A stretch of DNA of 38,920 nt from Candidatus Hydrothermarchaeota archaeon (GTDB lineage: Archaea > Hydrothermarchaeota > Hydrothermarchaeia > Hydrothermarchaeales > JAADFM01), in contig CAZHQS010000002.1 of assembly GCA_964534545.1 (NCBI GenBank), positions 1-38,920 on the forward strand. The letters are read 5' to 3'. This document shows, one piece after another, positions 1,542 to 33,215 of this stretch. Below the pieces are notes generated by a model that was not told where the DNA came from, did not search any database, and saw only the letters and a program-made list of their open reading frames with translations. Position 1 is the first letter of the stretch, and the number at the start of each line of letters is the position of its first letter. Made by a program: the position numbers and the translations under genes.

Positions 1542-1567
1542 AATTGATATCCCCAGAGGACATTAGG

Positions 1568-2743: not shown

Positions 2744-2744
2744 G

Positions 2745-4295: not shown

Positions 4296-4310
4296 TTTTA
4301 ATTTTCAAGC

Positions 4311-4415: not shown

Positions 4416-4444
4416 CAAAACCCCAAGAATTAGGAGGTGAACGT

Positions 4445-6815: not shown

Positions 6816-6821
6816 TTCCTC

Positions 6822-8078: not shown

Positions 8079-9029
8079 ATGGCGGCATCCGCTCCGTTAG
8101 ACATCGGCCCGGGAAGGCGCGACAATCTCGTATGGGTAGTTTTCTTTGGGGCCCTATTGCTGCTGCCTGTCTGTATCTCTGCGATGCCCGAGTACTCGGA
8201 GAGGACCGGCGAGGGCTGCGGGACGTGCCATCTGGAGGATGACGGCGGTCCCTTGAGCAGGGAAGGCCTCGAGTATGCTGCTTCAGGCTACACGTGGCCC
8301 CCTGAAGGGGGGTACAGGGTCCTGGGGCCAATGGGTAAGTACCTCCGGCTCCTGGTGGGCTTCCTTCACCTTGCAGCTGCCTTCATTTGGTTCGGTGCCA
8401 TTTTATATGTCCACATCCTCCTCAGGCCGGGCTATGCCTCCAAGGGACTACCAAAGGGAGAGGTGGTCATGGGCCTTGTTTCCATGGTCCTTGTGGGTAT
8501 AACCGGTGTGCTGCTTACCGTATCGAGGGTCAAGGGTCTTGACGTGCTGTACTCCAGCCGGTGGGGGATGGTCCTCTCCATCAAGATCATCCTTTATGTC
8601 GTCATGGTCTCCGGCGCCCTCGTTGTAGTGACCTTCGTGGGACCGAGGCTTAAAAGGAGGGCGGGACGCCCCGAGCCTCCCGCCGGGGGGATCTATGACC
8701 CCCTGACCCTCTCGTGGTTTGACGGAAAGGAGGGCAGACCCCCCTATGTTGCCTACAGGGGAGAGGTCTATGATATGAGCGGCCTCGAGCTGTGGAGGGA
8801 TGGGACCCACATGAAGCACAGGGCAGGGGAGGACCTCTCGGATGCCATGAAAAGGGCCCCCCACGGAGATGAAAAACTGGAGCCCCTGAAGGTCGTGGGC
8901 TCCTTTGATGCTGGATTGAGCCCCCCCAGGCGCCCCATAGAAAAGGTCTTCTATTTCATAGCATATATGAACCTCGTGCTGGTGTTCTCGGTGCTCTTTG
9001 TGATCTCCTACTGGAGGTGGGGGCTATAG
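8079..9029 (+). CDS. Membrane protein fusing an N-terminal CxxCH motif, a CopD-like TM domain and a cytochrome b5-like domain
   Basis: Strong RBS tract GGTGAGGAAGGGAGGA. Signal anchor then YSERTGEGCGTCH. TM helices with LHLAAAFIWFGAILYVH (CopD-like). Soluble insert LSWFDGKEGRPPYVAYRGEVYDMS...HRAGEDLS (b5/steroid-binding-like). Final TM helix. Confidence 0.75.
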   Translation: MAASAPLDIGPGRRDNLVWVVFFGALLLLPVCISAMPEYSERTGEGCGTCHLEDDGGPLSREGLEYAASGYTWPPEGGYRVLGPMGKYLRLLVGFLHLAAAFIWFGAILYVHILLRPGYASKGLPKGEVVMGLVSMVLVGITGVLLTVSRVKGLDVLYSSRWGMVLSIKIILYVVMVSGALVVVTFVGPRLKRRAGRPEPPAGGIYDPLTLSWFDGKEGRPPYVAYRGEVYDMSGLELWRDGTHMKHRAGEDLSDAMKRAPHGDEKLEPLKVVGSFDAGLSPPRRPIEKVFYFIAYMNLVLVFSVLFVISYWRWGL

Positions 9030-10544: not shown

Positions 10545-11129
10545 TTACTTGGCCAGCTCCTCTTCTATGACCTCTTTTATGTAGGGATACCCCTTGGTAT
10601 TGGGCACCTTCCTGCCGTTGATGTAGAGGGTCGGCGTGCCGATCACCCCTTGCTCCACGGCAGCCCTGAGGTCGTCCAGGACCTCCTCTTTATATTTCCC
10701 GGAATCCAGGCACTCCCTGAACCGGGCCTCCTCCAGGCCCACCTGGGCGGCGTACCGGTAGAAAGCGCTCCCGTCCCTTGCCCACTCCCTCACGTTCTCG
10801 AAGAGGAGGTCGTGGTAGGGCCAGAACTCCCCCTGCTCGTGGGCGCACTCGGCGGCCATGGCAGCGCTGAGGCTCACCTGCCCCCCCGGGACATGGCGGT
10901 AGACTATCCTCACCCTGTCCCCGTAGTCCTCCTTCAACTCCTGGAAGGTGGTGTCATGGAACATCTTGCAGGTGAGGCAGCCATAGCTGGAGAACTCCAC
11001 CACCTCCACCTTAGCGTCGGCAGGGCCCAGGAAGGGCTCATCCAGGAGGGCCGGGGTCTCCTCCGGGGCGGTCTGCGGAGCGGCCAGGCATCCCGTCAGC
11101 AGCCACAGGAGGAGCAGGGAGGTCCTCAT
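10545..11129 (-). CDS. DsbA/thioredoxin-fold lipoprotein (thiol:disulfide oxidoreductase)
   Basis: Lipobox MRTSLLLLWLLTGC; CxxC active site SSYGCLTCKMF; GTPTLYINGRK. 4-nt overlap with the upstream permease gene. Confidence 0.85.
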   Translation of the reverse strand: MRTSLLLLWLLTGCLAAPQTAPEETPALLDEPFLGPADAKVEVVEFSSYGCLTCKMFHDTTFQELKEDYGDRVRIVYRHVPGGQVSLSAAMAAECAHEQGEFWPYHDLLFENVREWARDGSAFYRYAAQVGLEEARFRECLDSGKYKEEVLDDLRAAVEQGVIGTPTLYINGRKVPNTKGYPYIKEVIEEELAK

Positions 11130-12757
11130 TCTCCCACCCTTATGAGCTCGTAGGGCTCCATGCCCACGCTCTTCCTCGTGGACAGGGTGGCCCCCATGGC
11201 ACCCACGGCGGCCGAGAGGAGCACCACCCCCAGGGCGAGGCCCACCACCAGGAGGTCCCCGGGCCAGATAAAGGGTAGCTTGAGGCTGGCGGTCACCGCC
11301 TTCCTGAAACCTATCACCACGGCGCCGCCCAGGCAGGACCCCAGGACCCCCCCCACCAGGCCGATGAAGGCCGCCTCTCGGGCGAAGAGCCCCAGGACGA
11401 ATCCCGTGCTGGCCCCCATGGCCCTGATGATACCAAGCTCCCTCTTGCGTTCGTTCACCGTCATGGAGGATATGAGGGATATGCCGGAGACGGCAAAGAG
11501 CCAGACCGCCGACATCAGGAGCAGGAAGGCCAGGAAGAGCCCGTCAAGCCTCTCCCTCACCACGGCGGTGGCCTTCCTGACCGGGATGGCCGAGACCCCC
11601 GGGATCCCCTCTATGGCCTCGGCCACCAGCTCGGCCTCCCCCTGGGACCTCACCTTCACATGGATGGTGGAGATGGAGTCCCCTGGAACCCCCTGGAAGC
11701 CGGCGGCCTCATCCAGGGTGATGAAGACGGAGTTGTCGAAGAACTCCATGCCCGTGCGCCTGAGGGTCCCGATGACGTAGAACTCCCTACCCTGGAGGGG
11801 AATCCTCTGGCCCCTGGAGTACTTGACACCGTATCCCACGATGGCCTCCTCGGGGCCCATACGGGTATCCTGGGGGCGGGCAAGCCATGGCTCCACAGTG
11901 AAATCCGACCCCGGCTCTATCCCCACCACCCCGGCCTCGAAGGGCACGCCGAGCTTTGTGTAGGTGAAGGAACCCGCATAGAGCTGGGGTGAGGTTTCCT
12001 CCACCCAGGGTAGGGCCGCCACCTCCTGGAGGACCTCTTCCTCCATGTAGACCGGTCTGAAGCCGGTGCCCAGGAGGATATCCTGGGCCACAAAGGACTG
12101 CTCCTCGGGGACCACGATGATATCCACACCGATCCGGGCGGTGAGGCTCTCAAGGCCCCTCTTCGAGCCTTCCATGATGATGGTGCCGGAAAAGAGGGCA
12201 GAGGAGGCCACGGCTACCAGGAAGACCTGCACGAAGCTGCGGAAGGGTCTCTCCCTGATGTTCTGGAGTATCAGGTAGGAGGTCCTGAGGCGCTGTCTTT
12301 TGCTAAGGGTTACCTCCCATCCCCTGTGGCCCCCGTAGCCGGCCAGGATGGTCAGAAGGCCCAGGAAATAGAGGAGGAGCTGGATGCCCACATGGGCCCG
12401 GATGGAGTTCTTCCCTGCCCAGATCATGGGGTTGTAGGACATGCCCAGGAGGTCCGCCCCCATCTTGAGATAGTGCTCCACGGGCATCATCGCGTAGCCC
12501 GCCAGGACCACAAGCCCCCCCAGGACCATGACACCCCCGTGGAGGGCCCTTCGGGACCACCCCAGGACCTGGAGGATGCCCAGGAGGAATATCCCGGCCC
12601 CCAGGAAGAGCTCCGGGTGATAGGTCCAGGAATAGCACCGCTCCTTGATGATGGCCTCGGTGAAGGTGGTGGTGGTCCTGGTTGGCAGGAGGTGGTGGGG
12701 AAGGGCCATGGTGGCAAGCCCCAGGACCGCGGTGATGTAGCCGTGAAGTTTTGCCAT
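11126..12757 (-). CDS. MacB/FtsX-type ABC permease with an extra N-terminal 4-TM domain (module 2, permease B)
   Basis: About 150 aa of extra TM helices (contains ...ERCYSWTYHPE...) come before the canonical start-like LILQNIRERPFRSFV. Then RIGVDIIVVPE, an extracytoplasmic domain, and NERKRELGIIRAMGAS plus three TM helices. Confidence 0.85.
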   Translation of the reverse strand: MAKLHGYITAVLGLATMALPHHLLPTRTTTTFTEAIIKERCYSWTYHPELFLGAGIFLLGILQVLGWSRRALHGGVMVLGGLVVLAGYAMMPVEHYLKMGADLLGMSYNPMIWAGKNSIRAHVGIQLLLYFLGLLTILAGYGGHRGWEVTLSKRQRLRTSYLILQNIRERPFRSFVQVFLVAVASSALFSGTIIMEGSKRGLESLTARIGVDIIVVPEEQSFVAQDILLGTGFRPVYMEEEVLQEVAALPWVEETSPQLYAGSFTYTKLGVPFEAGVVGIEPGSDFTVEPWLARPQDTRMGPEEAIVGYGVKYSRGQRIPLQGREFYVIGTLRRTGMEFFDNSVFITLDEAAGFQGVPGDSISTIHVKVRSQGEAELVAEAIEGIPGVSAIPVRKATAVVRERLDGLFLAFLLLMSAVWLFAVSGISLISSMTVNERKRELGIIRAMGASTGFVLGLFAREAAFIGLVGGVLGSCLGGAVVIGFRKAVTASLKLPFIWPGDLLVVGLALGVVLLSAAVGAMGATLSTRKSVGMEPYELIRVGE

Positions 12758-12759
12758 TA

Positions 12760-13428
12760 TTACTGGGATACTATTTTACCGTCCTTCATGGTGAGCATGG
12801 CCTGGGCCTCCCTTGCCAGGGCCTTGTTGTGGGTGACCATGACGAAGGTGACCCCCTCCTCCCGGTTCATCCTCCGGAATAGCTCCATAACAGTGGCCTC
12901 GCTCTCCTCGTCCAGGTCCCCGGTGGGCTCGTCGGCCAGGATGATCTTGGGCCGGTTCATGAAGGCCCTGGCGATGGCGACACGGCGCTGCTGGCCCCCG
13001 GAGAGCTCCGAGGGATAGGCCTCTATCTTGTCGGTCAGCTCCACCATATCCAGGAGGTCCCTTGCCCTCTCCAGGCTCTCCTCCTGCTGTTTGCAGAAGA
13101 AGGTGGGCAGGAGGAGGTTGTCCAGGACATTGAGGGTGGGGATGAGGCTTGCAAACTGGAACATGAAACCTATGGTCAGGTTGCGGAAGATGGACATCTC
13201 CCTGTCGTCCAGGGTCCAGATGTCCGTGCCCTCGATGGTGACGGTCCCTGCGGTGGGTTTGGTCAGACCGCCGATAAGGCTCAGGAGGGTGGTCTTGCCG
13301 CTGCCGGAGTGGCCCACGATGGAGACGAAATCCCCGGCCCCGATCTCCAGGTTGATGTTGTCCACAGCCCGAATCTCTCCAGAACCGACCTTGTAGACCT
13401 TGGTTAGATTGCTAAGGGATATCATCAT
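12760..13428 (-). CDS. ABC transporter ATP-binding protein, MacB/LolD-like (module 2)
   Basis: GHSGSGKTT, LSGGQQRRVAIARAF, IILADEPTGDLD. Close paralogue of 2745..3413. Confidence 0.92.
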   Translation of the reverse strand: MMISLSNLTKVYKVGSGEIRAVDNINLEIGAGDFVSIVGHSGSGKTTLLSLIGGLTKPTAGTVTIEGTDIWTLDDREMSIFRNLTIGFMFQFASLIPTLNVLDNLLLPTFFCKQQEESLERARDLLDMVELTDKIEAYPSELSGGQQRRVAIARAFMNRPKIILADEPTGDLDEESEATVMELFRRMNREEGVTFVMVTHNKALAREAQAMLTMKDGKIVSQ

Positions 13429-14675
13429 TCTCCTCTCCTTATGGCCTCATAGGGCTCCATCCTGCTGGATATGATGGCCGGGTAGAGGGCCGAGACGATG
13501 CCTGTCAGGATGGAAAGGCCCAGGGATATCAGCACCATCTCCAGGATGTAGCCCGTGTCGGGCCATACATAGGGCACCTTCAAAACGGTCAGGATATCCT
13601 TCTCAAAGGCCTTTATCACCAGCCCGCTTGCCACTACCCCCAGGATACCGCCGAGGGTGGTCAGGGTGACGGACTCCAGCATGATCAGCCTGAAGACGAA
13701 TCCCTTGGTGGCCCCCATGGCCCTGGTGAGGCCGATCTCCCTCTTCCTCTCATTGACTATCATGGAAAAGACCGCCCCGATCATCACCACGGCCATGAGC
13801 CAGATGACCGCACTCAGGGCAAAGAGCCCCTTCAGAAGGGATGAGAGCTGCTCCTTGACCGAGGATATGGCCTCCTGGGAGACTATGGCCTTGACCCTGG
13901 GGATGGCGGGGTCCTGGAGGTTTGCCCTGGCCAGGGCGTTCTCGATCCTGAAGGAGGCCCTCTTGGCCCCGATGACCTCGTCGCTTTTGACCAGGACCAC
14001 CGAGATCTGGTCATCCCGGAGAAGCAGGTCCTCGACCTTGTCCTCGGGGTCGGCATCCCCCCGGGAGTCCGCTGCCATCTGGTAGGCGGTCTGGATGGGG
14101 ATGAAGGCGGCGTTGTCAAAGAAACCTATCCCGGTCTCTTCAAGCTTTGCTACCACATTGAACTGGTGACCGAAGAATTTCAGTTTTGCCCCTTCGTCCC
14201 AGTAGAAGCCCCCCCCGATGATGAGGTCGTCGGGACCTATCTCCCCCTTGAGGGTGCTCTTGACCCAGGGCCTTACCGTCAGGTCGGTTTCCGGGTCGAA
14301 GCCTATGAGGAGGACGTTCCATCCAACGCAACAGGCCTTGGAGGCGGTCTTGAGGAAGACCTGGGGAGTGGCCTCCTTTACCCCATCCACACCCCTTACG
14401 ATATCCAGGACCCTGGCGTCCATGTAAAAGGTGCTGGGTTCACCCCCCAGGAGGGTGGCCTGGGCAGAGGTCTCGGCACCTTCAGGGACCACGATGATGT
14501 CTGCCCCGAGCCTGGATGCCCCCAGCTCGATACTGTTCTCGACGCTCTTCATGAGGAGGGTGCCGGAGAAGAGGGTGGCAGAGGCAATGGCCACGCTGAG
14601 GACCAGGGTGATGCTGCGGAAGAGTTTCCGCTGGATGTTCTGTCTGATGAGGTAGAAGAGGTTCAGCCTTGCCAT
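13425..14675 (-). CDS. MacB/FtsX-type ABC permease (module 2, permease A)
   Basis: Start MARLNLFYLIRQNIQRKLFRS at 14675 follows AGAGGG. RLGADIIVVPEG, vicinal Cys in SKACCVGW, NERKREIGLTRAMGATK. 4-nt overlap with the ATPase gene. Confidence 0.85.
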   Translation of the reverse strand: MARLNLFYLIRQNIQRKLFRSITLVLSVAIASATLFSGTLLMKSVENSIELGASRLGADIIVVPEGAETSAQATLLGGEPSTFYMDARVLDIVRGVDGVKEATPQVFLKTASKACCVGWNVLLIGFDPETDLTVRPWVKSTLKGEIGPDDLIIGGGFYWDEGAKLKFFGHQFNVVAKLEETGIGFFDNAAFIPIQTAYQMAADSRGDADPEDKVEDLLLRDDQISVVLVKSDEVIGAKRASFRIENALARANLQDPAIPRVKAIVSQEAISSVKEQLSSLLKGLFALSAVIWLMAVVMIGAVFSMIVNERKREIGLTRAMGATKGFVFRLIMLESVTLTTLGGILGVVASGLVIKAFEKDILTVLKVPYVWPDTGYILEMVLISLGLSILTGIVSALYPAIISSRMEPYEAIRRGE

Positions 14676-14785
14676 TATACCCTCTTTGTTTATTGTCACA
14701 TCGGTAAAAAATAAGAGAGATGGTTTTCCCGAGATCGAAGCCCAAGCAAATCCTATAAATACCACTAATAATCCAATAAAGGGTT

Positions 14786-15916
14786 GTGACAAAGAGGATA
14801 TTGATTGCACTTCTGCTCCTGTTGGGCTGCCTGGGTCCCGGGGAGCTCCAGGAGGACCTCCAGAGTACCTCCGGGGATTGGAGCATGTTCATGCACGACC
14901 TGGACCACACCGGCAGCACTACCGGAGAGATTCAACTACCATTAAAACTTGAATGGGAGTTCCCCAGCGGGGGACGGATCGGTTATTCCTCCCCGGCGGT
15001 GGCCGATGGGCGGGTCTTTGTGGGTACCAGTGACTGGGACCTCCTGGCCCTGGACAGGGAGACCGGGGAGCTGCTCTGGGAGTTTCCCACGGGGGGACCG
15101 GTGGAGTCCTCTCCTGCCGTGGCTGGGGACATGGTATTCTTCGGTTCCTATGACGGTCACTTATATGCCGTGGATGCCGCCACGGGGGCGGAAAGATGGA
15201 GTTTCAAGGCCTCAGGGGAGATACTGACTTCTCCAGCCGTCTCAGGGGGGGCCGTGTACTTTGGCTCCTTTGACGGCCGGGTCTTTGCCCTCAACGCCCT
15301 CAACGGGAAGAGGATATGGGAACAGGAGCTGGGGGGTCAGGTCCACTCGTCTCCTGCGGTATGGGGGGACATGGTCTTCACCTCGGCCTACGAGGAGCAG
15401 ACGTTGTATGCCCTGGATGCCCGGAAGGGGAAGGTCCTGTGGTCCTTCAAGACCAAGGGCCCCATCCATGCCTCCCCGACAGTAAGGGACGGCAGGGTCC
15501 TGATAGGGTCCAAGGACAGCTTTTTCTACTGCCTCGATGCTGCCTCCGGGAACCTCCTATGGAGGTTTGAGACCGGGGCCCCCATAGATTCCTCGGCGGC
15601 GGTAAGGGACGGGACGGTGTATCTGGCCTCCTATGACGGGAGGGTCTATGCTGTGGACCTTGCAACCGGCCAGGAGAGATGGAGGCAGGAAATCGGCTCG
15701 GAGTTCATATCCTCCCCGGTCCTGACAGGCAACGGCATCCTCCTCATCGGCTCCAGGGACAGGAGCCTCTATGCCCTAGATGCGGACACCGGGGAGGTCC
15801 TCTGGGACTTCGCCACCGGGGATATGGTCTACTCCACCGCTGCGGTGGCCGGTGGGCAGGTCTTCATCGGCTCCTTTGACGGCAGCCTCTATGCCTTTTC
15901 CGGGAGGGGGGGTTGA
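14786..15916 (+). CDS. PQQ-like (BamB-type) beta-propeller repeat lipoprotein
   Basis: Lipobox MTKRILIALLLLLGC. Eight repeats of the type SSPAV.dG.VFvGS.DG.LYALDA.TGE.LW. Confidence 0.85.
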   Translation: MTKRILIALLLLLGCLGPGELQEDLQSTSGDWSMFMHDLDHTGSTTGEIQLPLKLEWEFPSGGRIGYSSPAVADGRVFVGTSDWDLLALDRETGELLWEFPTGGPVESSPAVAGDMVFFGSYDGHLYAVDAATGAERWSFKASGEILTSPAVSGGAVYFGSFDGRVFALNALNGKRIWEQELGGQVHSSPAVWGDMVFTSAYEEQTLYALDARKGKVLWSFKTKGPIHASPTVRDGRVLIGSKDSFFYCLDAASGNLLWRFETGAPIDSSAAVRDGTVYLASYDGRVYAVDLATGQERWRQEIGSEFISSPVLTGNGILLIGSRDRSLYALDADTGEVLWDFATGDMVYSTAAVAGGQVFIGSFDGSLYAFSGRGG

Positions 15917-17302: not shown

Positions 17303-18319
17303 TCAGCTCCAAAGCAGAACCAGATGGTACATGGCCACGGCCACGGTGGCCACCCCGGCGAAGACCAGGAAGCCTCCCAGGGACAGGAGGCTTGCCCTCC
17401 GCTGGAATCCCTCCACGGCCTCCCTGATGGTGGGGTGGGTCTTGAAGGGTTCCACCACCCCCACCAGCACTCCGAAGATGCCGCCGAAGAAGAGGGCTGT
17501 GTAGAGGGGGTAACCTAGGTAGTAGGGTCCCTGGAGGACCTCGAAGGGACAGCGGTGGTCCACGGGCAGGCCGTAGAGGAGGACGTTCATGTAGGGGCTG
17601 AAGAAGGCCATGAGGGCCACGAGGGATACCCCGAAGGTGAAAAGGGAGAGGAAGGCCACCGGGTAGGCGGCGTCCTTGCGTCTTTTAAGGTGAAGGACAT
17701 GGAGGATTGCCGTGGCGGTGACGCTGGTGTAGAAGAGGAGGGCCACCGGCAGCCTGGGGATGTTGATGAGGATGAAGCCGTAGGGGTTGGAGGCCCTCTG
17801 GAGGACCGAACCGCAGCAGGTGGTGATGACGTTGGGGTCCAGGGCGAGGAAATACTTCAGCTCAAAGAAGGTCTCCAGGGCCAGGACGGGCAGGACCAGG
17901 AGGAGCAGGCCGTACTTGAGCCTGACCAGGGGATAGTCCTCGCCCCGGGTGTCTATATAGTTGATGGCAAGCCAGGTGGAATAAAAGAACACACCGAGGA
18001 CCTTCAACCCCAGGGCCTTGAACCCGTAGGGATTGACGTTCAGGGACCCGAAGGCGCACATGGCCCCCCGCAGGGTGGTGTGGAGGGCATCGGCGGTGAA
18101 GACGAAGAGGAGGAGGGAAAGGACCTGGAAGGCCAGGACGTACTCCATGATGGTGGAGACCAGGTGGGTCTGCCGCTCCAGGGCGAGCTGTTCCTCCGAG
18201 GAGCTGTCCATGTCCCACCTCTTGAGGATCCTCACGGCCACCAGGGCGGCGTAGAGGGACAGGAGGAGGACCACCCCCAGGCCCAGGACCTGGGCAAGGA
18301 TCCATGGGTTCAGGATCAT
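17303..18319 (-). CDS. Polytopic (about 8 TM) membrane protein with conserved-looking Cys motifs, function unknown
   Basis: Hydrophobic throughout. Cys motifs GAMCAFG, TTCCGS and HRCPF. 4-nt overlap with the upstream ATPase gene places it last in the operon. Confidence 0.7.
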   Translation of the reverse strand: MILNPWILAQVLGLGVVLLLSLYAALVAVRILKRWDMDSSSEEQLALERQTHLVSTIMEYVLAFQVLSLLLFVFTADALHTTLRGAMCAFGSLNVNPYGFKALGLKVLGVFFYSTWLAINYIDTRGEDYPLVRLKYGLLLLVLPVLALETFFELKYFLALDPNVITTCCGSVLQRASNPYGFILINIPRLPVALLFYTSVTATAILHVLHLKRRKDAAYPVAFLSLFTFGVSLVALMAFFSPYMNVLLYGLPVDHRCPFEVLQGPYYLGYPLYTALFFGGIFGVLVGVVEPFKTHPTIREAVEGFQRRASLLSLGGFLVFAGVATVAVAMYHLVLLWS

Positions 18320-19002
18320 CTCTTGACCCCTGTTACCCTGCCGTCCCTCATCTCATAGACTACATCCACGAAGGTCCCCTGGTAGACCAGGGGATCGTGG
18401 GTGGCGATGATGACGGTCTGCCCCTCCCTTTTCATCTCCTCCACTATCCCGAGGAACTCCCTGGAGAGGGCGGTGTCCAGGTGGGCGGTGGGCTCGTCGG
18501 CGATGACGATCTCGGGCTTGTTCACCAGGGCCCTGGCTATGGCCACCCGCTGCTGCTCGCCCCCTGAGATCTCCTTCACCAGGTAATCAACCCTTTTCCC
18601 GAGGCCGAGTTTTTCCAGGATGTCCCTGCCCCTGGCCCTCATTTCCCTGGGCCGGACTCCCAGGGCGTAGAGGGGCAGGATGGTGTTCTCCAGGACTGTT
18701 AGGTCCCCGATGAGGTTGAACTGCTGGAAGATGAGGCCGATGTGGGCCCGCCGGTGGAGGGTGAGGAAGCGCTCAGGGAGCTTGGAGACCTCCTTTCCGG
18801 CCACGAAGACCCTGCCCGAGGTGGGTCTTGATATGCATCCAATCATGCTCAGAAGGGTGGTCTTCCCGGAACCGCTGGGGCCCATGAGGATGGTGACCTC
18901 TCCTTCCCGAGCCTCCATGGAGACCTCTCTTACGGCCGCGGTCTCGTTGGGCCTGCCCCTGTTGAAGATCTTTGTGACCTCGAGGGTTTTTACTGCTACC
19001 AT
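18316..19002 (-). CDS. ABC transporter ATP-binding protein, MacB/LolD-like (module 3)
   Basis: GPSGSGKTT, ISGGEQQRVAIARAL, VIADEPTAHLD. Confidence 0.92.
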   Translation of the reverse strand: MVAVKTLEVTKIFNRGRPNETAAVREVSMEAREGEVTILMGPSGSGKTTLLSMIGCISRPTSGRVFVAGKEVSKLPERFLTLHRRAHIGLIFQQFNLIGDLTVLENTILPLYALGVRPREMRARGRDILEKLGLGKRVDYLVKEISGGEQQRVAIARALVNKPEIVIADEPTAHLDTALSREFLGIVEEMKREGQTVIIATHDPLVYQGTFVDVVYEMRDGRVTGVKR

Positions 19003-20181
19003 TTAGATACCCCGTACTGCCACATCCGGGTCGGTGACGGCGGTCTTCCACGCCGGGATGATGATGGCCGCCATGAAGGGCACCACCGAGATGAAGAATA
19101 TCAGGAGGAGCTGGTTCAGGTCCACGTGGGGAGTCAGGGCAAAATCAGGATAGAGCACCGACCAGCCGATGAGGACGGGTTTCAGCAGGGTAGCACCCAG
19201 GTGGAAGACGTGGATATAGGCCAGGATTACCCCCAGGAGGTAGGAGTTCAGGGCGATGATGAGACCCTCGAAGGACTTTAGCGTCAGGATGTCCCCGGTG
19301 GTCCAGCCCACGGCCTTGAGGATCCCCACCTCCCTCTTCTCCTCCGCGGTGGTGGAGGACATCCTGTCAAAGGCCAGGATGGCGAAGGCCAGAAGCATCC
19401 CTGCCATGGCCGCCAGGAACATGCCGCTGCGCCAGCCGAAGATGGTCTCGTAGGTGCGCTCCAGGGCGTCCCTGGGCAGGACCCGGGTGTCGGGCAGTAT
19501 CCGGGATATCTTGCTGGCGACAGTGGGGAGCTCCGCCGGGTTCGCCACATAGACCATGAGGTCGTTGGAGCTGTCCTGCGGGATGCCGAAGAAGGCCCGG
19601 GCGTCGTCCATGTCCAGGAGGACCAGGTCGGCTGTCTGGAGGTTGGATGAGGAGGAGAAGATCCCCACCACCTGGAACTTCACGTATTTCCCTTCTGAGT
19701 TGAGGAGGATGAGCTTGTCCCCCAGCTGGATGCCCTTGAAATCGGCCAGGACCTTCCCCACCACTACCTCTCCTCTCCCGGGTCTGCGCCCCTCCTCCAG
19801 GGCGAGGCTAAAATCCTCCTCCAGGTCCAGCATATCCTCCCTGACCCCGAGGAAGGTGAAGGTGGCCCCGGTTTCCGTGTCGTAGTAGTACCCCCATACC
19901 CTGGGCACCACCCTCGAGACCCCGTTTATCTCCTGGATTTTTTCCATGTAGCCCAGGGGCACCAGGGCCTGTCGCCCCGCCACCAGCTTCTGGACGGTTA
20001 TATCCGGGGCCAGGGAGAGGGTCTCCCGGGCCTCACCCTTAAGGGCGCTGAAGAGGAAGACCTCCGAGGCGAGGACGAAGACCACCAGGACGAAGACCAG
20101 GATGGTGCCGAGGTTTTTCACCTTCTTCCGTTTAAAGGATGAGACGGAATAGTCCAGGATGTTCCGGTGCCTCTCGATCAC
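19003..20181 (-). CDS. MacB/FtsX-type ABC permease (module 3)
   Basis: N-terminal TM helix, an extracytoplasmic domain of about 200 aa, EEKREVGILKAVGWTTG, and three C-terminal TM helices. Confidence 0.85.
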   Translation of the reverse strand: MIERHRNILDYSVSSFKRKKVKNLGTILVFVLVVFVLASEVFLFSALKGEARETLSLAPDITVQKLVAGRQALVPLGYMEKIQEINGVSRVVPRVWGYYYDTETGATFTFLGVREDMLDLEEDFSLALEEGRRPGRGEVVVGKVLADFKGIQLGDKLILLNSEGKYVKFQVVGIFSSSSNLQTADLVLLDMDDARAFFGIPQDSSNDLMVYVANPAELPTVASKISRILPDTRVLPRDALERTYETIFGWRSGMFLAAMAGMLLAFAILAFDRMSSTTAEEKREVGILKAVGWTTGDILTLKSFEGLIIALNSYLLGVILAYIHVFHLGATLLKPVLIGWSVLYPDFALTPHVDLNQLLLIFFISVVPFMAAIIIPAWKTAVTDPDVAVRGI

Positions 20182-20471
20182 CTTTCCACCTCCATGGGGG
20201 CCCCGAGGCCCTCAAAGTCCGGTGGGGAGAAGCCTGCACAGGAGGCGTGGTAGCACATGGCCCCGGGCAGGTCCCTGAAGCAACCCGCCATGTCCACGGT
20301 GCTGGGGTTCCTGGTGGAGTAGCAGTCCGTGGCGATGGAAAGGTCTGTCAGCCCCAGGGGCCTCAGGGGCGGGAGCACGTCCCTTTCCATCGGCCCGGAG
20401 CCTGACAGGAGGAGGGCCAGGACACCCACCTCGAGACCCAGGACCAGAAGAACTGCTGTCGATGCCCTCAT
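20178..20471 (-). CDS. Small signal-anchored 4-Cys protein, function unknown
   Basis: 97 aa. N-terminal hydrophobic segment AVLLVLGLEVGVLALLL, then ATDCYS..MAGCFRDLPGAMCYHASCAG. ATGA-type 4-nt overlaps on both sides. Confidence 0.6.
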   Translation of the reverse strand: MRASTAVLLVLGLEVGVLALLLSGSGPMERDVLPPLRPLGLTDLSIATDCYSTRNPSTVDMAGCFRDLPGAMCYHASCAGFSPPDFEGLGAPMEVER

Positions 20472-20950
20472 TCCAACCCTATCCTCTCCATGTTCTGGAG
20501 GACCTCCTGGAAGGTCATGACCGCCCCGGAGGGATGGTCCTCCCGGAAGGACTCGGCCTTCTCCCGGTCCTGGAAGGGGACCAGCCCGTATCCCATGGGG
20601 GTGTATATTCTGGCCCTGGTGACGAAATAGGCACCCGTGGCGTCAATCCACTCCTGGGTGTAGTAGTCCCTGACGAAGACCTTCCTCACCTGGTCCTGGC
20701 CTGAGAGGCGGCTGTAGTAGATCATCAGGCACCCGGGGTCGTCGAACTTCTTCACCTTGTCCTCCAGGAAGATCTCTCCCGCCCAGTTCTCGTAGTCCTT
20801 GACGTACATGCCGCAGACCGGGCAGCGGTCCCCCTTCTCTATCTCCAGGGGGTGGATTTCTCCGGCTGTAACCTGGGAGGGGGACCCTTTCCCCATGCAG
20901 CCCAGGATAAGAAAAAGCATTGAGACGATCAGGGCAGTCCGTAGTGACAT
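20468..20950 (-). CDS. nosL: NosL-family lipoprotein (putative Cu chaperone), copy 1
   Basis: Lipobox LFLILGC. CPVCGMYV...FDDPGC and GYGLVPF motifs typical of NosL. Confidence 0.8.
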   Translation of the reverse strand: MSLRTALIVSMLFLILGCMGKGSPSQVTAGEIHPLEIEKGDRCPVCGMYVKDYENWAGEIFLEDKVKKFDDPGCLMIYYSRLSGQDQVRKVFVRDYYTQEWIDATGAYFVTRARIYTPMGYGLVPFQDREKAESFREDHPSGAVMTFQEVLQNMERIGLE

Positions 20951-21050
20951 AGTACCTTTTATCTTCGGAACTCACTTAATATAATTTTTTAAAAAACATG
21001 GCCAAGGAGGGAAGGGAATGGCTCATGTGACCTCTGATGGAGCCAGGGCT

Positions 21051-21215
21051 TTAGCCTTCTTTTGTTGTGGGTTCTTTCCCGCCTTCATCCAGCCCCTTCT
21101 GGAACTCGGACTTGGCCTTGCCCAGGGAGCGGGCAAGCTCCGGGACCTTGGAACCACCGAAGAGGAGGATGACTATCAGGAGGACTATCATGCTTTCCTG
21201 AGGACCGACAAACAT
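21051..21215 (-). CDS. tatA: Twin-arginine translocase subunit TatA/E (54 aa, absent from the ORF track)
   Basis: My own translation: MFVGPQESMIVLLIVILLFGGSKVPELARSLGKAKSEFQKGLDEGGKEPTTKEG. This gives the TatA TM helix plus the FGG.K.PEL.RSLGKA..EFKK amphipathic motif. SD AAAGGTGAAGGT lies directly upstream. Confidence 0.85.
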   Translation of the reverse strand: MFVGPQESMIVLLIVILLFGGSKVPELARSLGKAKSEFQKGLDEGGKEPTTKEG

Positions 21216-21306: not shown

Positions 21307-21984
21307 TTAACCACACCCAACTACCACGAGCTCCTCGCCCATGGCCTCATTTTGCATATCCATACCGCCCATATCCATAGAACCAGTGTCCATACTTTCA
21401 GACCCCATATCCATGCCGCCCATCTTCATCTTGAGGTCCTTCAGCAGGTCCTTGGTTATGGCATCGTAACCTATGACCTCGCCGCCGTGCTCATGGGCAA
21501 AGGCCATGGCGTCATCCATGCTTGCAAAGGGGATAACATCATCACCCATGGGACCCTGGACATCGCTTCCCTTGACGTAGTGGGCGGTCCTGGCATCGAT
21601 GTACTCCTTGGTGGAGTAGTCGGTGACGAAGACCCCGGCTATGGTGCTTGTGTCCTCTATCCAGGTCTTGTCCATGCCCATGTTGTCCAGACCCTTGAGA
21701 TATTTCAGCATGTCCTTGGGGGAGTCAAAGTGGGCGGCCGTTCCGTCTGTGAAGAGGATCTGGGCCCTCCATTCCGGGAATTTTGCGGGCATCATACCGC
21801 AGATGGGGCACTCGTCAGCCATGGTGGGCTGTACCGGTTCTATCTCCGCCGGAGGGGCGGTGGTAGGTGCAGGTGTGGCGGCCGGGGCCGCCTGCTGGGC
21901 TGGCCCTGCACAGCCAGCAAGTAGGCTGATAAGGGTTAAGGTCAAAAGCAATCCTTTTGCACTCGCTTTCATCTTTCGAATCAC
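21307..21984 (-). CDS. nosL: NosL-family lipoprotein, copy 2, with Met-rich tail and ELVVVGCG C-terminus
   Basis: Lipobox LISLLAGC. CPICGMMP...FDSPKD. Met-rich tail MKMGGMDMGSESMDTGSMDMGGMDMQNEAMG. Ends EELVVVGCG. SD GAGGTGAT. Confidence 0.8.
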   Translation of the reverse strand: MIRKMKASAKGLLLTLTLISLLAGCAGPAQQAAPAATPAPTTAPPAEIEPVQPTMADECPICGMMPAKFPEWRAQILFTDGTAAHFDSPKDMLKYLKGLDNMGMDKTWIEDTSTIAGVFVTDYSTKEYIDARTAHYVKGSDVQGPMGDDVIPFASMDDAMAFAHEHGGEVIGYDAITKDLLKDLKMKMGGMDMGSESMDTGSMDMGGMDMQNEAMGEELVVVGCG

Positions 21985-22191: not shown

Positions 22192-22650
22192 TCACAGGGT
22201 TTTCTTACCCCGGCGTCCTTCTCTCAAATCTTCAAACCTCAAAACCACCCCCTCATGTATTTCTCTGAAGGTCGAGACAGACCTGTGGTCCTTGAAGGCA
22301 ATGATGCCGCAGTTCATGGGAGTTTTAATGTCACTGTCCTTGAGATAGTAGGCGTCCTTGATTCCCACCCATTCCAATGTGCGATAATCAGCAACATGGG
22401 CATTTGAGAAGTCAGTGGTGTTATATCTAAGCAGGCAGCATATGGTGCAAAAATCGACTTTTGTGCCGTCCTTCAATGTCAGATAAGAAGAGAACCCCAG
22501 CATCTCATCGGTGATTGCCATCCCGCACTTGGCGCAAGAGTACCCAAGGTCCAGACCACCGAAGTCCCCCTCGCAGCATTCCTGTGTATACACTCCGATG
22601 TTTGCGCATCCGGCAAGGAGGACCAGGGCCAGACCGCAGATACACTTCAT
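22192..22650 (-). CDS. nosL: NosL-family lipoprotein, copy 3
   Basis: Start MKCICGLALVLLAGC at 22650, 7 nt after the upstream stop. CAKCGMAI...VDFCTICC and NCGIIAF. The longer track ORF (to 22797) overlaps the upstream gene. Confidence 0.72.
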   Translation of the reverse strand: MKCICGLALVLLAGCANIGVYTQECCEGDFGGLDLGYSCAKCGMAITDEMLGFSSYLTLKDGTKVDFCTICCLLRYNTTDFSNAHVADYRTLEWVGIKDAYYLKDSDIKTPMNCGIIAFKDHRSVSTFREIHEGVVLRFEDLREGRRGKKTL

Positions 22651-22657
22651 GGCTTTC

Positions 22658-24103
22658 TCAGCTGCCCCATCCTCCACTTGAGACCGCTTCGGTTGTAAAG
22701 GCAGCCGAGATAAACATCTCGGTCGCATTGACGGTAGCCTCTCTGTCCTTTCCCGCAATAATAATGGCGGTTTGACCTTCAACGAAGGCATCTTCAATTA
22801 CTTCGATGTCGCCCTCACTTGTATACCAGTCAACCTTTGATTTGCCGGTGCTCACCAACTCGGCAACCAGGCTGTTTGCCACCGGGCCTCCTACGAGCAC
22901 CAGGGTCTTCTCCCCTTTTTCACTCTCAGTGATCTCCTTCTCGGATTTTACAGGGATATGAGGAATGCCATTATACGAACCGGAAGCCCCGATGAGGACG
23001 TCCTTGGTCAGGAAATCATCGTAATCGGCCTTGGTCTTCTTAAGCCAGGTCTCCGGGAGGACATCACCCAAGGTCTTCTCCTTCTCTATGTCGAAGGTCT
23101 TGGCAGTCGAGAGGCTGACCCAGTATTTCGTACCGGAAATCTTTATACTCTCCCCAGGGGAGAGGGTCACTTCGGGCCCAAAGGCCGCGAACCCATTGGG
23201 GACGCCGTAATCATCATTGAATACCTTTATGAACTCATATCCTGCTGTATCTTCTATGCCGTCCGTTAGCTCTATCACATCGGATCTGTTCACAAAGGCG
23301 ATAGTTACGGTGCCGGCGCTGGCGTCCACGGTATCCAGGATCATGTGATGGTCAGGGAAGAGGTCTAAAAACTCTTTCTCTTCGACGAGTTCCGGCAGGT
23401 CGCTCTGGTTGTATGGCAACTCGAAGGACCTGTCCATAGACCCCTTGTCCCTGTCATAGACCCCCAATCGGAGGGAAAGGTTTGCTGTGATACCGAAAAC
23501 CCCTATGCTTTTAGAGGTATGAGGTACTGAGATGAAACTATTTATGTTTGCTGCATTAATGAAGGTCCTCTTGGCCACCTTTCCTATCACAATCTTCTCC
23601 CCTGCCTCTATATCCACTATGCCGTAATAATCCGTTGTCATCGCCTTCTCCTTCCAGTCGTAGTATCTGACGGTGAATATCTCCCCCTTCCGGGCGCTCG
23701 TCTTTTTGTAGCATGGTCTGAGCTTAAGATCCCTGGATTTTTCGGTGAAGTACAGATAACTGTATCTGAACTCGGCCCTCCCGGTGGTACTCTTTTTATA
23801 ATAGCTGCTCTCGTTGATGTTCGACCAGTCAAGACCCGCGAAGTCGTCGGTTAGCCATGTGATCTCAAGTTCAATACCGTCATCAATGGTTACACTTTCT
23901 GTACCGACCTCTTTTATCTTCTCGGCAATAGTGTTAGCACATTTCAGGTCTTCCGGCACGATGCCGTGGGTGTTTATTCCGACAACGACTGTTGTTCTCC
24001 CCTCCCCGTCCTGGGAGAAGATGCTCTTATCGAAGGTCAGCTCCTCTGCATGGACAAGACCTAGGGATAGCAACGCCACCAGTATCAAGGGGAGGGCCTT
24101 CAT
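22658..24103 (-). CDS. Secreted archaeal S-layer-like protein
   Basis: Signal peptide MKALPLILVALLSLGLVHA. N-terminal TVVVGINTHGIVPEDLKCANTIAEKI and C-terminal LVLVGGPVANSLVAELV motifs resemble the methanococcal-type S-layer family. The RBS AAAGGAGG lies in the end of the upstream gene. Confidence 0.65.
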   Translation of the reverse strand: MKALPLILVALLSLGLVHAEELTFDKSIFSQDGEGRTTVVVGINTHGIVPEDLKCANTIAEKIKEVGTESVTIDDGIELEITWLTDDFAGLDWSNINESSYYKKSTTGRAEFRYSYLYFTEKSRDLKLRPCYKKTSARKGEIFTVRYYDWKEKAMTTDYYGIVDIEAGEKIVIGKVAKRTFINAANINSFISVPHTSKSIGVFGITANLSLRLGVYDRDKGSMDRSFELPYNQSDLPELVEEKEFLDLFPDHHMILDTVDASAGTVTIAFVNRSDVIELTDGIEDTAGYEFIKVFNDDYGVPNGFAAFGPEVTLSPGESIKISGTKYWVSLSTAKTFDIEKEKTLGDVLPETWLKKTKADYDDFLTKDVLIGASGSYNGIPHIPVKSEKEITESEKGEKTLVLVGGPVANSLVAELVSTGKSKVDWYTSEGDIEVIEDAFVEGQTAIIIAGKDREATVNATEMFISAAFTTEAVSSGGWGS

Positions 24104-29209: not shown

Positions 29210-29440
29210 ATGAGTAAGGAAAACACCGGAACCCGGAAGGGAGGCCATGGCTTTGGCGATACCCTCAAGGAGGGCAGGAAGAGGCTCAAGATAAAGATGG
29301 CAGACCTGATTTATGTCCTGGACATCCAGAACAAGAACCCCCATGTGGACCGGGTCCTGGCAGACTACGGCCTGGACCGGGACACCCTGAAACGGGTCAA
29401 GGCGGCCCTGGAAAGGGGCAGGTGGAAGGTCCAGGTCTAA
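29210..29440 (+). CDS. Small basic protein (possible HTH), hypothetical
   Basis: 76-aa ORF with host-like codon usage. TGTATATAAT and the ATCGG/CCGAT palindrome lie upstream. Its stop overlaps the hemY stop on the opposite strand. Confidence 0.35.
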   Translation: MSKENTGTRKGGHGFGDTLKEGRKRLKIKMADLIYVLDIQNKNPHVDRVLADYGLDRDTLKRVKAALERGRWKVQV

Positions 29441-30867
29441 CCGCCCTTTTTCAGGTATCTAACTACCTTTTCCCCGGTCTCGGCCGCCACCCTTGAGCAG
29501 TCGTTGATTCCTATGCCGGTGTAGGAGTTGCCTGCCAGGAAGAGGCCGGGATGCTCCTTCAATCTCGCCTCCAGCCTTTCCAGCTTTTCAGAGTGCCCCA
29601 CATTGTACTGGGGGATGGCCTTGCCGTGGCGGGCAATCTTTACCATCTCGGGCTCGGCCTGGACCCCCATGATCTCCCGCAGGTCCTTCTTGACCGCCTC
29701 TATCATGTCCTGGTCCAGGAGGTCGGCGGTCTCGGGACGCCTGGCCCCCCCCACCATACACCTCAGGAGGACCTTGCCTTCGGGGGCCCTGTGGTCGTAC
29801 ATGCTGGAGTCCCAGAGGCATCCCAGGATGGTCCTGCCCTCCTCGTGGGGGACCAGGAAGCCGAAGCCCTCCAGGTCATGGCCGATTTCCTCCTTGGAAT
29901 AGCCCAGGGCCACCACCGCCAGGGGGGGATAGGGGATCTCCTCCAGGATACCTTTGATCTCCTCGTCCAGGCCCGAGAGGACCTCGGCGCAGGCGTAGGC
30001 CGGGGCGGCCATGACCACCACATCAGCCCCCAGGCTCCCGGTGCTGCCCTCTTGGTCCTGGTAATGGACGGTATATCTCCCCTCGGGGCTCATTCCGACC
30101 CGCGTCACCCTCCTGCCGGTGACGATGGCATCGCCGAGTTTCTCCTCCAGGATATCTATGATGAACTGCATTCCCTCCGGGAAGGAGGTCAGGGTGCCTC
30201 CGGGCCCCATGGGACCCCCCTTGGCCCCCGCCTTGCCCTCCTTTCTCATCTGTTTCGCCTTCTTCATCCTCCGGATCATGGCCTTTATGAGGCTGCCGCC
30301 GCCCTCCTGCTCGAGCTGGGCCATGATGGGGAAGGCGCTTTTGAGGCTGAGCCTGTAGGGGTCCCCGGCGAAGACCCCGGAGACCATGGGCCCCACCAGG
30401 TTGCGCAGGGCCTCCCTTCCGATGTGCCTCTCCACGAAGGAGGCCACGGTCTCGTCCCCGGCCTCTGGTGGTTTCGTGAAGGGCTCCCTGAGGACCCTCA
30501 GCCTCCCCTTGAGGGAGAGGACCCCGGATTTGAAAAAGCCCAGGGGGGAACTGGCCAAGAGATGGAGCTTTCCATAGGCATAGATGTACCTCTTCCTGGC
30601 CCTGTCATTGGAGGGCATGAGGCGGTCCCTTATCCCCAGGGCGTCGCAGAGCTCCAGGGTCCAGGGCTTGTTGTCCAGAAAGCCGTTGACCCCCCATTCT
30701 ATGCTGTAACCTTCCGTCTTCTCGGTCCATACCTTGCCCCCCAGCCTCCTGGAACCCTCGAGGACGGTTAGGTCTATATCCAGACCCTCCTTCTCTGCCC
30801 CCTCCATGATCCTGAAGGCCGTGGCCAGGCCTGAGAACCCACCACCCACGACTACGATTTCGGTCAT
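29437..30867 (-). CDS. hemY: Protoporphyrinogen/coproporphyrinogen III oxidase (HemY/CgoX type)
   Basis: FAD-binding fold IVVVGGGFSGLATAF, about 476 aa, C-terminal GNSYTGIGINDC. Adjacent to hemH and hemE. Confidence 0.85.
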   Translation of the reverse strand: MTEIVVVGGGFSGLATAFRIMEGAEKEGLDIDLTVLEGSRRLGGKVWTEKTEGYSIEWGVNGFLDNKPWTLELCDALGIRDRLMPSNDRARKRYIYAYGKLHLLASSPLGFFKSGVLSLKGRLRVLREPFTKPPEAGDETVASFVERHIGREALRNLVGPMVSGVFAGDPYRLSLKSAFPIMAQLEQEGGGSLIKAMIRRMKKAKQMRKEGKAGAKGGPMGPGGTLTSFPEGMQFIIDILEEKLGDAIVTGRRVTRVGMSPEGRYTVHYQDQEGSTGSLGADVVVMAAPAYACAEVLSGLDEEIKGILEEIPYPPLAVVALGYSKEEIGHDLEGFGFLVPHEEGRTILGCLWDSSMYDHRAPEGKVLLRCMVGGARRPETADLLDQDMIEAVKKDLREIMGVQAEPEMVKIARHGKAIPQYNVGHSEKLERLEARLKEHPGLFLAGNSYTGIGINDCSRVAAETGEKVVRYLKKGG

Positions 30868-30877
30868 GTAGTAACCT

Positions 30878-31822: not shown

Positions 31823-31863
31823 CCTCCATCATAAATCCTTGCCAGGGATATAAGTATTTTCGC

Positions 31864-32895: not shown

Positions 32896-32933
32896 CAACC
32901 AAGGTGTAGGGAGAGGGGCCCATATAACCTTTT

Positions 32934-33215
32934 CTAATGGACACCCCTGACTTGCCTGGAATAGCAGTCCCTGCAATAAACCGGCCTGTCCTGATGAGGC
33001 ACGAAGGGAACCTGGGTGGCCTCCCCACACTCGGCGCAGATGGCATCATGCATCTCTCGGGAGACCCTTCCGCTGCGAGCGGCCTTCTTCCTATCCCTAC
33101 AGGCCCTGCATCTTTTGGGGTCCTGGAAGCCCTTATCCCTGTAGAAATCCTGTTCCTCGCCAGAGAAAAGGAACTCCTCCCCGCAGTCCAGGCAGATTAT
33201 GGTCCTATCTTCCAT
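32934..33215 (-). CDS. Double zinc-ribbon protein (CxxC..CxxC, twice)
   Basis: ICLDCGEEF...RCRACRDRK and ICAECGEAT...YCRDCY. Confidence 0.75.
   Translation of the reverse strand: MEDRTIICLDCGEEFLFSGEEQDFYRDKGFQDPKRCRACRDRKKAARSGRVSREMHDAICAECGEATQVPFVPHQDRPVYCRDCYSRQVRGVH

Follow-up and report, generated by a model that had tools for sequence, protein, structure and literature searches.

A conserved operon that joins a NosL-family protein to a type VII ABC system and two undescribed membrane protein families in a Hydrothermarchaeota archaeon

The operon and its five products

The stretch of DNA analysed here (38,920 nucleotides of contig CAZHQS010000002.1, assembly GCA_964534545.1, from Candidatus Hydrothermarchaeota archaeon; hereafter, the window) carries on its minus strand a compact gene cassette in which a gene of the NosL family is joined to those of an ATP-binding cassette (ABC) system of type VII and of two membrane proteins without a described family, one of them with eight transmembrane (TM) segments (8-TM protein). 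We tentatively propose that this operon encodes an ATP-driven relay of Cu(I) outside the cytoplasm. The five genes, taken from the six-frame list of open reading frames (ORFs), and an upstream AT-rich box found by reading the sequence are, in the direction of transcription:

20975-20997, minus strand: AT-rich box TTTTTTAAAAAATTATATTAA, 25-47 nucleotides (nt) 5' of the NosL ATG
20468-20950, minus strand: gene for a NosL-family protein, a predicted lipoprotein, 160 amino acids (aa)
20178-20471, minus strand: gene for a small single-pass membrane protein, 97 aa
19003-20181, minus strand: gene for an FtsX permease, 392 aa, GTG start
18316-19002, minus strand: gene for an ABC ATPase, 228 aa
17303-18319, minus strand: gene for the 8-TM protein, 338 aa

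The ORF list and the sequence both confirmed the coordinates of the five overlapping or abutting genes. The original prediction, made from the sequence alone, described all junctions as ATGA-type overlaps or direct abutments. In the minus-strand sequence, this description fits the ATGA shared by the NosL and small-protein genes (20468-71), the ATGA shared by the ABC and 8-TM genes (18316-19), and the TAA/ATG abutment of the FtsX and ABC genes (19003/19002), but not the junction of the small-protein and FtsX genes (20178-81), which reads GTGA. A 100-nt intergenic region separates the NosL gene from the upstream TatA gene, which ends at 21051, and the AT-rich box within it is a candidate archaeal promoter with a TATA box and B recognition element; at the other end, a convergent HMGL-like gene ends 33 nt beyond the final stop codon of the cassette. 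Given the junctions, the AT-rich box and the convergent gene, it is plausible that the five genes form a single transcription unit. The comparative counts reported below refer to 85 non-redundant loci (L numbers) analysed via ORFs and phmmer, with gene calls made on five contigs.

The assignment of the first product to NosL holds in a hidden Markov model (HMM) search: it matches PF05573 with E=1.1e-27 and 97.4 bits (cut-off 24) over 130 of the 131 profile positions, and also matches P. stutzeri NosL from the NosDFY-NosL structures (7OSF, E=8e-10). Reading of the sequence reveals a lipobox cysteine (MSLRTALIVSMLFLILG-C18; lipobox LILG-C18), and the protein is predicted to be a lipoprotein. In S. 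denitrificans NosL, the Cu(I) ligands are Cys62, Met64 and Met145, which are strictly conserved among the 15 homologues analysed, and Cys59 is located on the structural Zn (PMC8457098). The residues of the window protein that align with C62, M64, M145 and C59 are C46, M48, M119 and C43, respectively, and the motif C43-x-x-C46-G-M48, together with M119, is retained in 73-74 of the 74 cassette NosLs, so that the protein is predicted to act as an extracytoplasmic Cu(I) chaperone.

The permease consists of a MacB_PCD domain (PF12704, 8e-13, residues 26-227) and an FtsX domain (PF02687, 1.5e-6, residues 259-381), with four TM helices in all, the first two of them separated by a periplasmic core domain, and its nearest solved structure is LolC (4e-10). 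In the ATPase (PF00005, 2.8e-34), the Walker A motif (GPSGSGKTT), the signature (SGGEQQR) and the Walker B motif (IVIADEPT) are all intact; in NCBIfam it comes closest to FtsE, LolD and the MacB nucleotide-binding domain (NBD), in each case below the equivalog cut-off. The pair displays the features of the type VII ABC class, namely, a 4-TM FtsX protein with a large periplasmic domain and an adjacent, separate NBD gene. The permease architecture is common to the type VII mechanotransmitters MacB, LolCDE, FtsEX and HrtBA, whereas the NBD as a separate protein is shared with LolCDE and FtsEX. By its domain content, the protein is a type VII (MacB/LolC-like) ABC permease that falls outside the named subfamilies, because it scores 74.1 bits against the LolCE model TIGR02212, the cut-off of which is 362.45. 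Unlike the named type VII systems, the cassette has a single permease gene and lacks any partner of the membrane-fusion or outer-membrane kind, all equivalog scores of the permease are far below the curated cut-offs, and the ATPase gene is coupled more tightly to the unrelated 8-TM gene than to the FtsX gene. Assignment to a MacAB-TolC pump was rejected, given that there is no HlyD-family adaptor gene, that the NBD is not fused to the permease, and that the CusB-like adaptors found in six loci belong to adjacent RND (resistance-nodulation-division) pumps; LolCDE was rejected on account of the low LolCE score, the single permease gene and the occurrence in archaea. Across 67 orthologues, the periplasmic domain of the permease contains no conserved cluster of Cys or Met and, therefore, a mechanical role fits it better than metal binding.

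The 97-aa protein has no Pfam or NCBIfam match and belongs to a family of at least 8000 clusters at 90% identity, in which every name returned was that of a hypothetical protein; in 62 of the 85 loci, its gene is immediately upstream of the FtsX gene. The original prediction depicted this protein as secreted, with four cysteines that define a metal site, and neither part of this picture is supported. AlphaFold2 predicts a helix at residues 3-23 with a predicted local distance difference test score (pLDDT) >95 and coil for the remainder (pLDDT about 50-58), with a mean of 65 for the model, and the N-terminus contains no clear cleavage site, so the protein is better described, on this model, as a single-pass, signal-anchored membrane protein with an extracytoplasmic tail. 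The quoted motifs DCYS, GCF and MCYHASC are present in the sequence, as are MCAFG, TTCCGS and HRCPF in the 8-TM protein, but the four cysteines of the small protein occur in just 4 of the 63 copies, all within the archaeal clade, the bacterial residues at these positions being Ala, Ala/Pro, Glu/Asp and Gly. What is invariant, instead, is a core of the form L41-T-D43 ... R54 ... D60 ... F65-x-D67-x-P69. The tail is conserved yet unstructured when modelled alone, which suggests that it probably folds on a partner. An exported peptide of the ribosomally synthesized and post-translationally modified type was considered and rejected, there being no modifying enzyme and the N-terminus being a stable TM anchor.

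The original prediction made the 8-TM protein part of a candidate undescribed system, and the protein does match no known family. The 338-aa protein has no Pfam or NCBIfam match, Pfam searches with 28 family members at E<=10 yielded only scattered single-member noise, the family profile found nothing among PDB sequences, and Foldseek comparison of the model with PDB gave a best E of 0.31 and a whole-model TM-score <0.3. Homology to CopD (PF05425), VKOR/DsbB, DsbD/CcdA or Mer proteins was rejected because no similarity in sequence or structure was detected, and the longer homologues P0085, P0092 and P0025 contain no informative fused domain. By these sequence and structure comparisons, the protein represents a new family that has no solved structural relative.

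The AlphaFold2 model of the 8-TM protein (pLDDT 93.6, predicted TM-score 0.91) comprises eight long helices; there are also short ones, which start immediately behind C88, at C169 and behind C257. In an alignment of 71 sequences, the residues W35, Q44, E48, G85-A86-M87-C88, G99, W116, C168, C169, C257-P258 and G269 are invariant, and H255 is nearly so. With helix limits taken from the model, the loops on the two sides contain 15 and 5 Lys and Arg residues and, by the positive-inside rule, loops 1-2, 3-4, 5-6 and 7-8 are therefore placed in the cytoplasm, along with two sets of conserved elements, W35/Q44/E48 and D123/P130/K135. The four invariant cysteines, M87 and H255 are predicted to lie in the outward-facing loops 2-3, 4-5 and 6-7, on the side that, in the predicted topology, is also that of NosL, the FtsX periplasmic domain and the tail of the small protein. 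No soft ligand is conserved in the membrane segments or on the cytoplasmic side in the same alignment, and this speaks for a site at the surface and against a channel. In the CPFC motif of bacterial members, the position of the second Cys is occupied by Glu in the archaeal clade, including the window protein. An extracytoplasmic Fe-S cluster on the 8-TM protein was rejected for want of a plausible assembly route for a Sec-inserted polytopic protein.

Distribution, modules and neighbours

The 8-TM family comprises 75 close clusters and, at 50% identity and E<=1e-3, 1390 clusters, every name returned being that of a hypothetical protein, with at least ~593 confirmed matches in species-representative genomes. 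Among the matches listed, the closest relatives come from a metagenome-assembled genome (MAG) of Methanobacteriota (71% identity) and from Hydrothermarchaeota MAGs (52-53%); the others are mainly from Nitrospirota/Thermodesulfovibrionales and Desulfobacterota (Desulfobulbaceae, Desulfobacteraceae, Syntrophobacteraceae, Geobacterales and Syntrophorhabdus), with single genomes from Deferribacteres, Marinimicrobia, Thiohalocapsa and Azonexus. A tblastn search with a bacterial 8-TM homologue against 72,556 plasmids produced no match and hence no annotated context on a resistance plasmid. In a full-text literature search, no paper that describes the cassette or one of the two new families was found.

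Gene order was counted in the 65 loci that have >=3.3 kilobases (kb) of upstream sequence. In about 47 of these, from Nitrospirota, Desulfobacterota, Deferribacteres, Marinimicrobia, Gamma- and Betaproteobacteria and archaea, one or two NosL genes are followed, on one strand, by the small-protein, FtsX, ABC and 8-TM genes in the same order; nine loci have the last four genes without a detected NosL, and three have the 8-TM gene by itself. The five genes are thus syntenic well beyond the window, and their arrangement is not due to chance, since homologues of every one of them keep this order in dozens of genomes that are unrelated. A start codon that permits a 4-nt overlap is present at the ABC/8-TM junction in 43 of 76 loci and at the small-protein/FtsX junction in 25 of 61.

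The original prediction of a five-gene unit stands with respect to the widely conserved order, but not all five genes are obligatory. In a variant cassette, NosL, ABC and 8-TM genes are followed by one for an FtrD-like protein (PF10080; L048:8744-11485 and L059:8797-11496), and family HMMs at E<=10 detected neither FtsX nor small-protein genes within 15-17 kb in these two loci; a third, similar locus (L033:1424-4101, 8.4 kb) holds only a distant FtsX2, and the Azonexus locus has no small protein. In these three variant loci the cassette FtsX is absent, which implies that the ATPase does not need it to serve the 8-TM protein. The cassette accordingly consists of modules, namely, NosL, the pair of small protein and FtsX, and the pair of ABC ATPase and 8-TM protein, of which the last is the tightest. 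Stand-alone 8-TM genes in two loci (L012 and L025) have unrelated housekeeping genes as neighbours. NosL is absent from a group of Desulfobulbaceae loci (L071:6028-7806, L036, L045, L074 and L029), in which the gene located between those for SCO1/SenC and the small protein encodes a product of 592 aa that contains the haem motif CDDCH and has no Pfam match; this product is a possible substitute for NosL.

Additional NosL genes are found both in the window and elsewhere. Those of the window are:

21307-21984, minus strand: second NosL paralogue, 225 aa, lipobox LAGC, CPICGM motif; PF05573 at 9.9e-32
22192-22797, minus strand: third, divergent NosL paralogue; PF05573 at 1.2e-10

Because tandem NosL genes are common in the cassette elsewhere (NosL-NosL tandems lie 5' of it in at least 13 loci), the second paralogue is a possible additional chaperone; the third probably has its true start at the internal Met of MKCICGLALVLLAGC. 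A 54-aa TatA/E gene (21051-21215, minus strand; PF02416) lies between the operon and these two paralogues, both of which have an LAGC lipobox, so that the window contains three consecutive NosL genes with a component of the twin-arginine translocation (Tat) system among them. TatA is a neighbour of the cassette in one other locus only (L027).

Unbiased clustering of the flanking ORFs identified no other family in more than about 15% of the 85 loci; the cassette, therefore, is self-contained. The neighbours that do recur are a CusA/CzcA heavy-metal RND pump in 12 loci (TIGR00914, 1062 bits, cut-off 701); a CusB-like adaptor that has a YHS domain at its C-terminus in six; SCO1/SenC in seven loci of the cluster analysis and, counting the Azonexus locus (L003), eight, in at least four different arrangements; a Cys-rich protein of the DUF2318/FtrD-like family directly downstream of the 8-TM gene in 11 loci, although not in this window; and adjacent sigma-54 response regulators in about seven. 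The RND and CusB-like neighbours vary in orientation and lineage, and in one locus (L068) the 8-TM gene is directly 3' of cusBA, without an ABC gene. The suggestion in the original prediction that the cassette serves the propeller-CxxCH proteins of the window had to be abandoned for lack of synteny: relatives of the CxxCH proteins (51-1499 and 4235-5671) are found in just 2-3 of the 85 loci, and the pyrroloquinoline quinone (PQQ) propeller only in four close archaeal relatives.

A possible Cu(I) relay and its alternatives

NosL has one established role, the supply of copper to nitrous oxide reductase by way of NosDFY, and NosL genes are common in organisms that lack this enzyme. According to Mueller et al. 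2022, as cited by others, NosDFY is an ABC complex that accepts Cu(I) from NosL and hands the metal on by conformational change, without transport. Type VII ABC systems, likewise, are known as mechanotransmitters rather than as transmembrane transporters. The cassette resembles the NosDFY-NosL system of P. stutzeri (PDB 7OSF-7OSJ) in that a NosL whose Cu(I) ligands are the same is encoded together with one or more membrane partners and an ABC ATPase, and the logic of NosDFY, where ATP is spent on the hand-over of Cu(I), suits a type VII ABC with an outward thiolate site. The two differ in that the cassette permease is of the FtsX/MacB_PCD type, 8-TM four-Cys and single-pass families are added, and the hosts are mostly non-denitrifying anaerobes and archaea. 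No NosD-like (beta-helix) or ABC-2-type (NosY) protein was detected among the window ORFs scanned against Pfam, a scan that was not exhaustive, or among the conserved neighbours in the 85 loci, and no NosZ or cupredoxin family among the scanned window ORFs or the annotated recurrent neighbours, whole genomes not being searched. With neither NosD and NosY nor nosZ co-located among the ORFs and neighbours covered, identification of the cassette as a NosDFY-NosL system was rejected.

The interpretation that we favour, while granting it slightly less than an even chance, is that the operon encodes an ATP-driven extracytoplasmic Cu(I) relay that is analogous, not homologous, to NosDFY-NosL. Lipoprotein NosL would capture Cu(I) via its Cys/Met/Met site, the ligands of which are conserved, and the outward thiolate site of the 8-TM protein (GAMC88, C168-C169 and H255-x-C257-P) would accept the metal or donate it. 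The ABC ATPase, the gene of which is, of all cassette genes, the most tightly coupled to that of the 8-TM protein, could alter the conformation of the latter through its conserved cytoplasmic elements as well as that of an FtsX dimer. FtsX and its single-pass partner would then serve as a mechanotransmitter that docks or releases NosL, with no substrate carried across the membrane. The cost in ATP would be that of stripping Cu(I) off a very tight chaperone and handing it on, either to load an extracytoplasmic copper protein or to feed a CusCBA-type efflux system for detoxification.

A Cu(I) relay is favoured by the retention of the NosL ligands together with the recurrence of the copper-handling neighbours CusA/CusB and SCO1/SenC, and the same observations fit the original idea of NosL with a MacB/FtsX-type ABC system as a non-homologous counterpart of NosDFY. 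As to the end point, the SCO1/SenC neighbours and the precedent of NosL favour loading, whereas detoxification is suggested by the Cus neighbours, by the exporter family and by the fact that the hosts are anaerobic. Several considerations weigh against the proposed relay. The specificity for copper rests on NosL homology and on neighbours that are each present in about 8-14% of the loci; no cuproenzyme target was found among the conserved neighbours in the 85 loci; and strict anaerobes, in which few extracytoplasmic copper proteins are known, make up most of the hosts. Moreover, the convergence of the three Cys loops of the 8-TM protein on one site is suggested by the topology only, and the substitution of Glu for the second CPFC Cys in archaea means that the site is not identical everywhere.

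A more specific version of the relay, which we consider doubtful albeit worth stating, is that the 8-TM four-Cys protein is a new kind of membrane partner of an ABC ATPase, with a fold that resembles no solved structure, and, with NosL, constitutes the core of a widespread, hitherto unrecognized pathway for thiophilic metals (Cu(I)) at the surface of anaerobic and archaeal cells, to which FtsX and the small protein are an add-on arm for mechanotransmission. What would be new, with the same reserve as for the relay as a whole, is a copper relay that depends on NosL, is powered by an ABC system and has two undescribed families at its centre.

NosDFY-NosL is the closest known system in its working, and the nearest analogue in architecture is the P19/FTR1 cluster, represented by C. 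jejuni genes 1649-1656, which encompasses a DUF2318 membrane protein, two permeases, an ATPase and thioredoxins, and for which the substrate of the ABC component is also unknown (PMC6083913). Both are multi-phylum clusters in which a periplasmic metal-binding protein is combined with a Cys-rich membrane protein and an ABC permease and ATPase, and the DUF2318/FtrD-like gene that follows the 8-TM gene in 11 loci strengthens the resemblance. However, the cassette has NosL in the place of P19, its 8-TM protein is unrelated to DUF2318, and its metal is presumably copper; FTR1 and P19 are not among the annotated neighbours, and a P19/FTR1-type iron system was rejected on that ground.

Of the other explanations, the one that fares best, although we still judge it unlikely, keeps the same relay and makes efflux its purpose: NosL and the 8-TM protein would collect periplasmic or membrane Cu(I), or Ag, which the MacB-type ABC system would expel, via CusCBA-type pumps in Gram-negative bacteria and directly to the outside in archaea. 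Characterized systems of the MacB family extrude their substrates from the periplasm or the outer leaflet, the hosts are anaerobic, and Cu(I) is especially toxic to anaerobes. The CusA/CzcA and YHS-containing CusB-like neighbours, in their various orientations and lineages, the 8-TM gene that directly follows cusBA in the absence of an ABC gene, and the adjacent sigma-54 response regulators all point in the same direction. Nevertheless, the cassette includes no gene for an adaptor or an outer-membrane factor, about 85% of the loci have no RND neighbour, and the SCO1/SenC neighbours suggest assembly over efflux.

Distinctly less probable is a thiol-redox or sulfur relay, reminiscent of the P19/FTR1-DUF2318-ABC iron system with its thioredoxins, in which the 8-TM protein would be a membrane thiol:disulfide oxidoreductase or a persulfide carrier regulated by the ABC system, and would keep the cysteines of NosL or a partner reduced, or supply sulfide. 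The four invariant cysteines, with their vicinal pair, and the CPFC (CxxC) motif of bacterial members are compatible with such chemistry, but the second Cys of that motif is Glu in the archaeal clade, and there is no conserved Cys on the cytoplasmic side for an electron relay. The match of one 8-TM member to VKOR (E=0.013) is confined to that member and is not significant. The genomic context is similarly divided: thioredoxin-fold proteins, namely, SCO1/SenC and the AhpC/TSA redoxins of one locus (L007), occur as neighbours, and the DUF2318/FtrD-like protein follows directly in 11 loci, as in the P19 system (PMC6083913), whereas the dsrAB-like genes near the cassette in the window and in L001 are neighbours only in archaeal relatives.

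Copper uptake in the manner of CopCD/YcnJ, with NosL as a scavenger of the scarce Cu(I) of sulfidic habitats and the 8-TM protein as the importer, seems still more improbable. The cassette shares with CopCD/YcnJ and with the Mer systems (MerT/MerC/MerF) the pairing of a polytopic protein that has Cys motifs with an extracytoplasmic protein that binds soft metals, and the vicinal Cys pair (C168-C169) is reminiscent of the Mer proteins. CopD, too, is an 8-TM protein that partners a periplasmic copper-binding protein; sulfide limits copper in the habitats of the hosts, and NosL has been discussed as a copper scavenger in sulfidic waters. Yet, no similarity in sequence or fold to CopD or Mer proteins is detectable, and, unlike Mer and CopD, in which the ligands are placed for translocation, the 8-TM protein has all its conserved ligands on one face, and a pathway would lack conserved soft ligands both inside the membrane and on the cytoplasmic side; we know of no type VII ABC system that acts as an importer.

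Finally, a LolCDE-like sorter that extracts the NosL lipoprotein or lipoproteins from the membrane is hardly credible: LolC/LolE is what the permease matches best, by family as well as by structure, and NosL and its paralogues have lipoboxes, but the score is 74 bits against the 362-bit LolCE cut-off with one permease gene rather than two, the cassette occurs in archaea, which have no outer membrane, and persists without FtsX, and the protein with invariant cysteines and the small protein would be left unexplained.

Other genes of the window and implications of the cassette

Two further type VII sets are encoded in the window. One (10545-14810, minus strand) has an ATPase placed between two FtsX/MacB_PCD permeases (543 and 461 aa), and a thioredoxin lipoprotein of the DsbA-like kind comes next, a layout that recalls the part of the P19 iron cluster with two permeases, ATPase and thioredoxin; the other is an FtsX and ATPase pair (1544-3413, plus strand) that comes after the two-CxxCH protein (51-1499). 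A membrane protein encoded at 8079-9029 (plus strand) contains a CGTCH motif and shows two matches, one to CopD that is below the threshold (E=3e-7, 31 bits against 32) and a weak one of the cytochrome b5-like type; the window may thus encode a further membrane protein that is related to copper. Two adjacent NIR_SIR/ferredoxin-like genes of the DsrAB type (5712-7964, minus strand) belong to the archaeal context; the same pair is found, with DsrC, near the cassette in L001, and this neighbourhood is confined to the archaeal clade.

On the far side of the operon, the segment 22000-29000 has a GC content of 0.49-0.54, compared to about 0.60 on each side, and may be an island or a differently evolving segment; it encodes an S-layer-like protein (PF05124), a FrhB/FdhB-like protein, a polyferredoxin, and a C_GCAxxG_C_C protein with a Tat-like RREFL signal. 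Genes for a protoporphyrinogen/coproporphyrinogen oxidase-like protein of the amine-oxidase type, ferrochelatase and uroporphyrinogen decarboxylase are located together at 29437-33030 (minus strand) and would represent a classical or coproporphyrin-type haem pathway; archaea usually make haem by the sirohaem-dependent route. The gene for 4-HFC-P synthase at 34813-35520 (minus strand; PF04476, methanofuran biosynthesis) is consistent with methanogen-related or Hydrothermarchaeota-type C1 metabolism.

Through this cassette, many orphan NosLs gain a conserved set of partners, and two large families that so far have been annotated only as hypothetical become defined. If the relay operates as proposed, it would extend ABC mechanotransmission for metal hand-over beyond NosDFY. 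In its more specific, doubtful version, it would also represent a second solution, of independent evolutionary origin, to the ATP-driven extraction of Cu(I) from NosL, with one ABC ATPase serving two unrelated membrane domains simultaneously. In the relay as proposed, the 8-TM protein would be a membrane fold with a multi-thiolate surface site and, as such, a good structural target. Most broadly, for metal homeostasis in sulfidic habitats, of which this part is poorly understood, the cassette would show by what means strict anaerobes and some archaea move Cu(I), or dispose of it, outside the cytoplasm.

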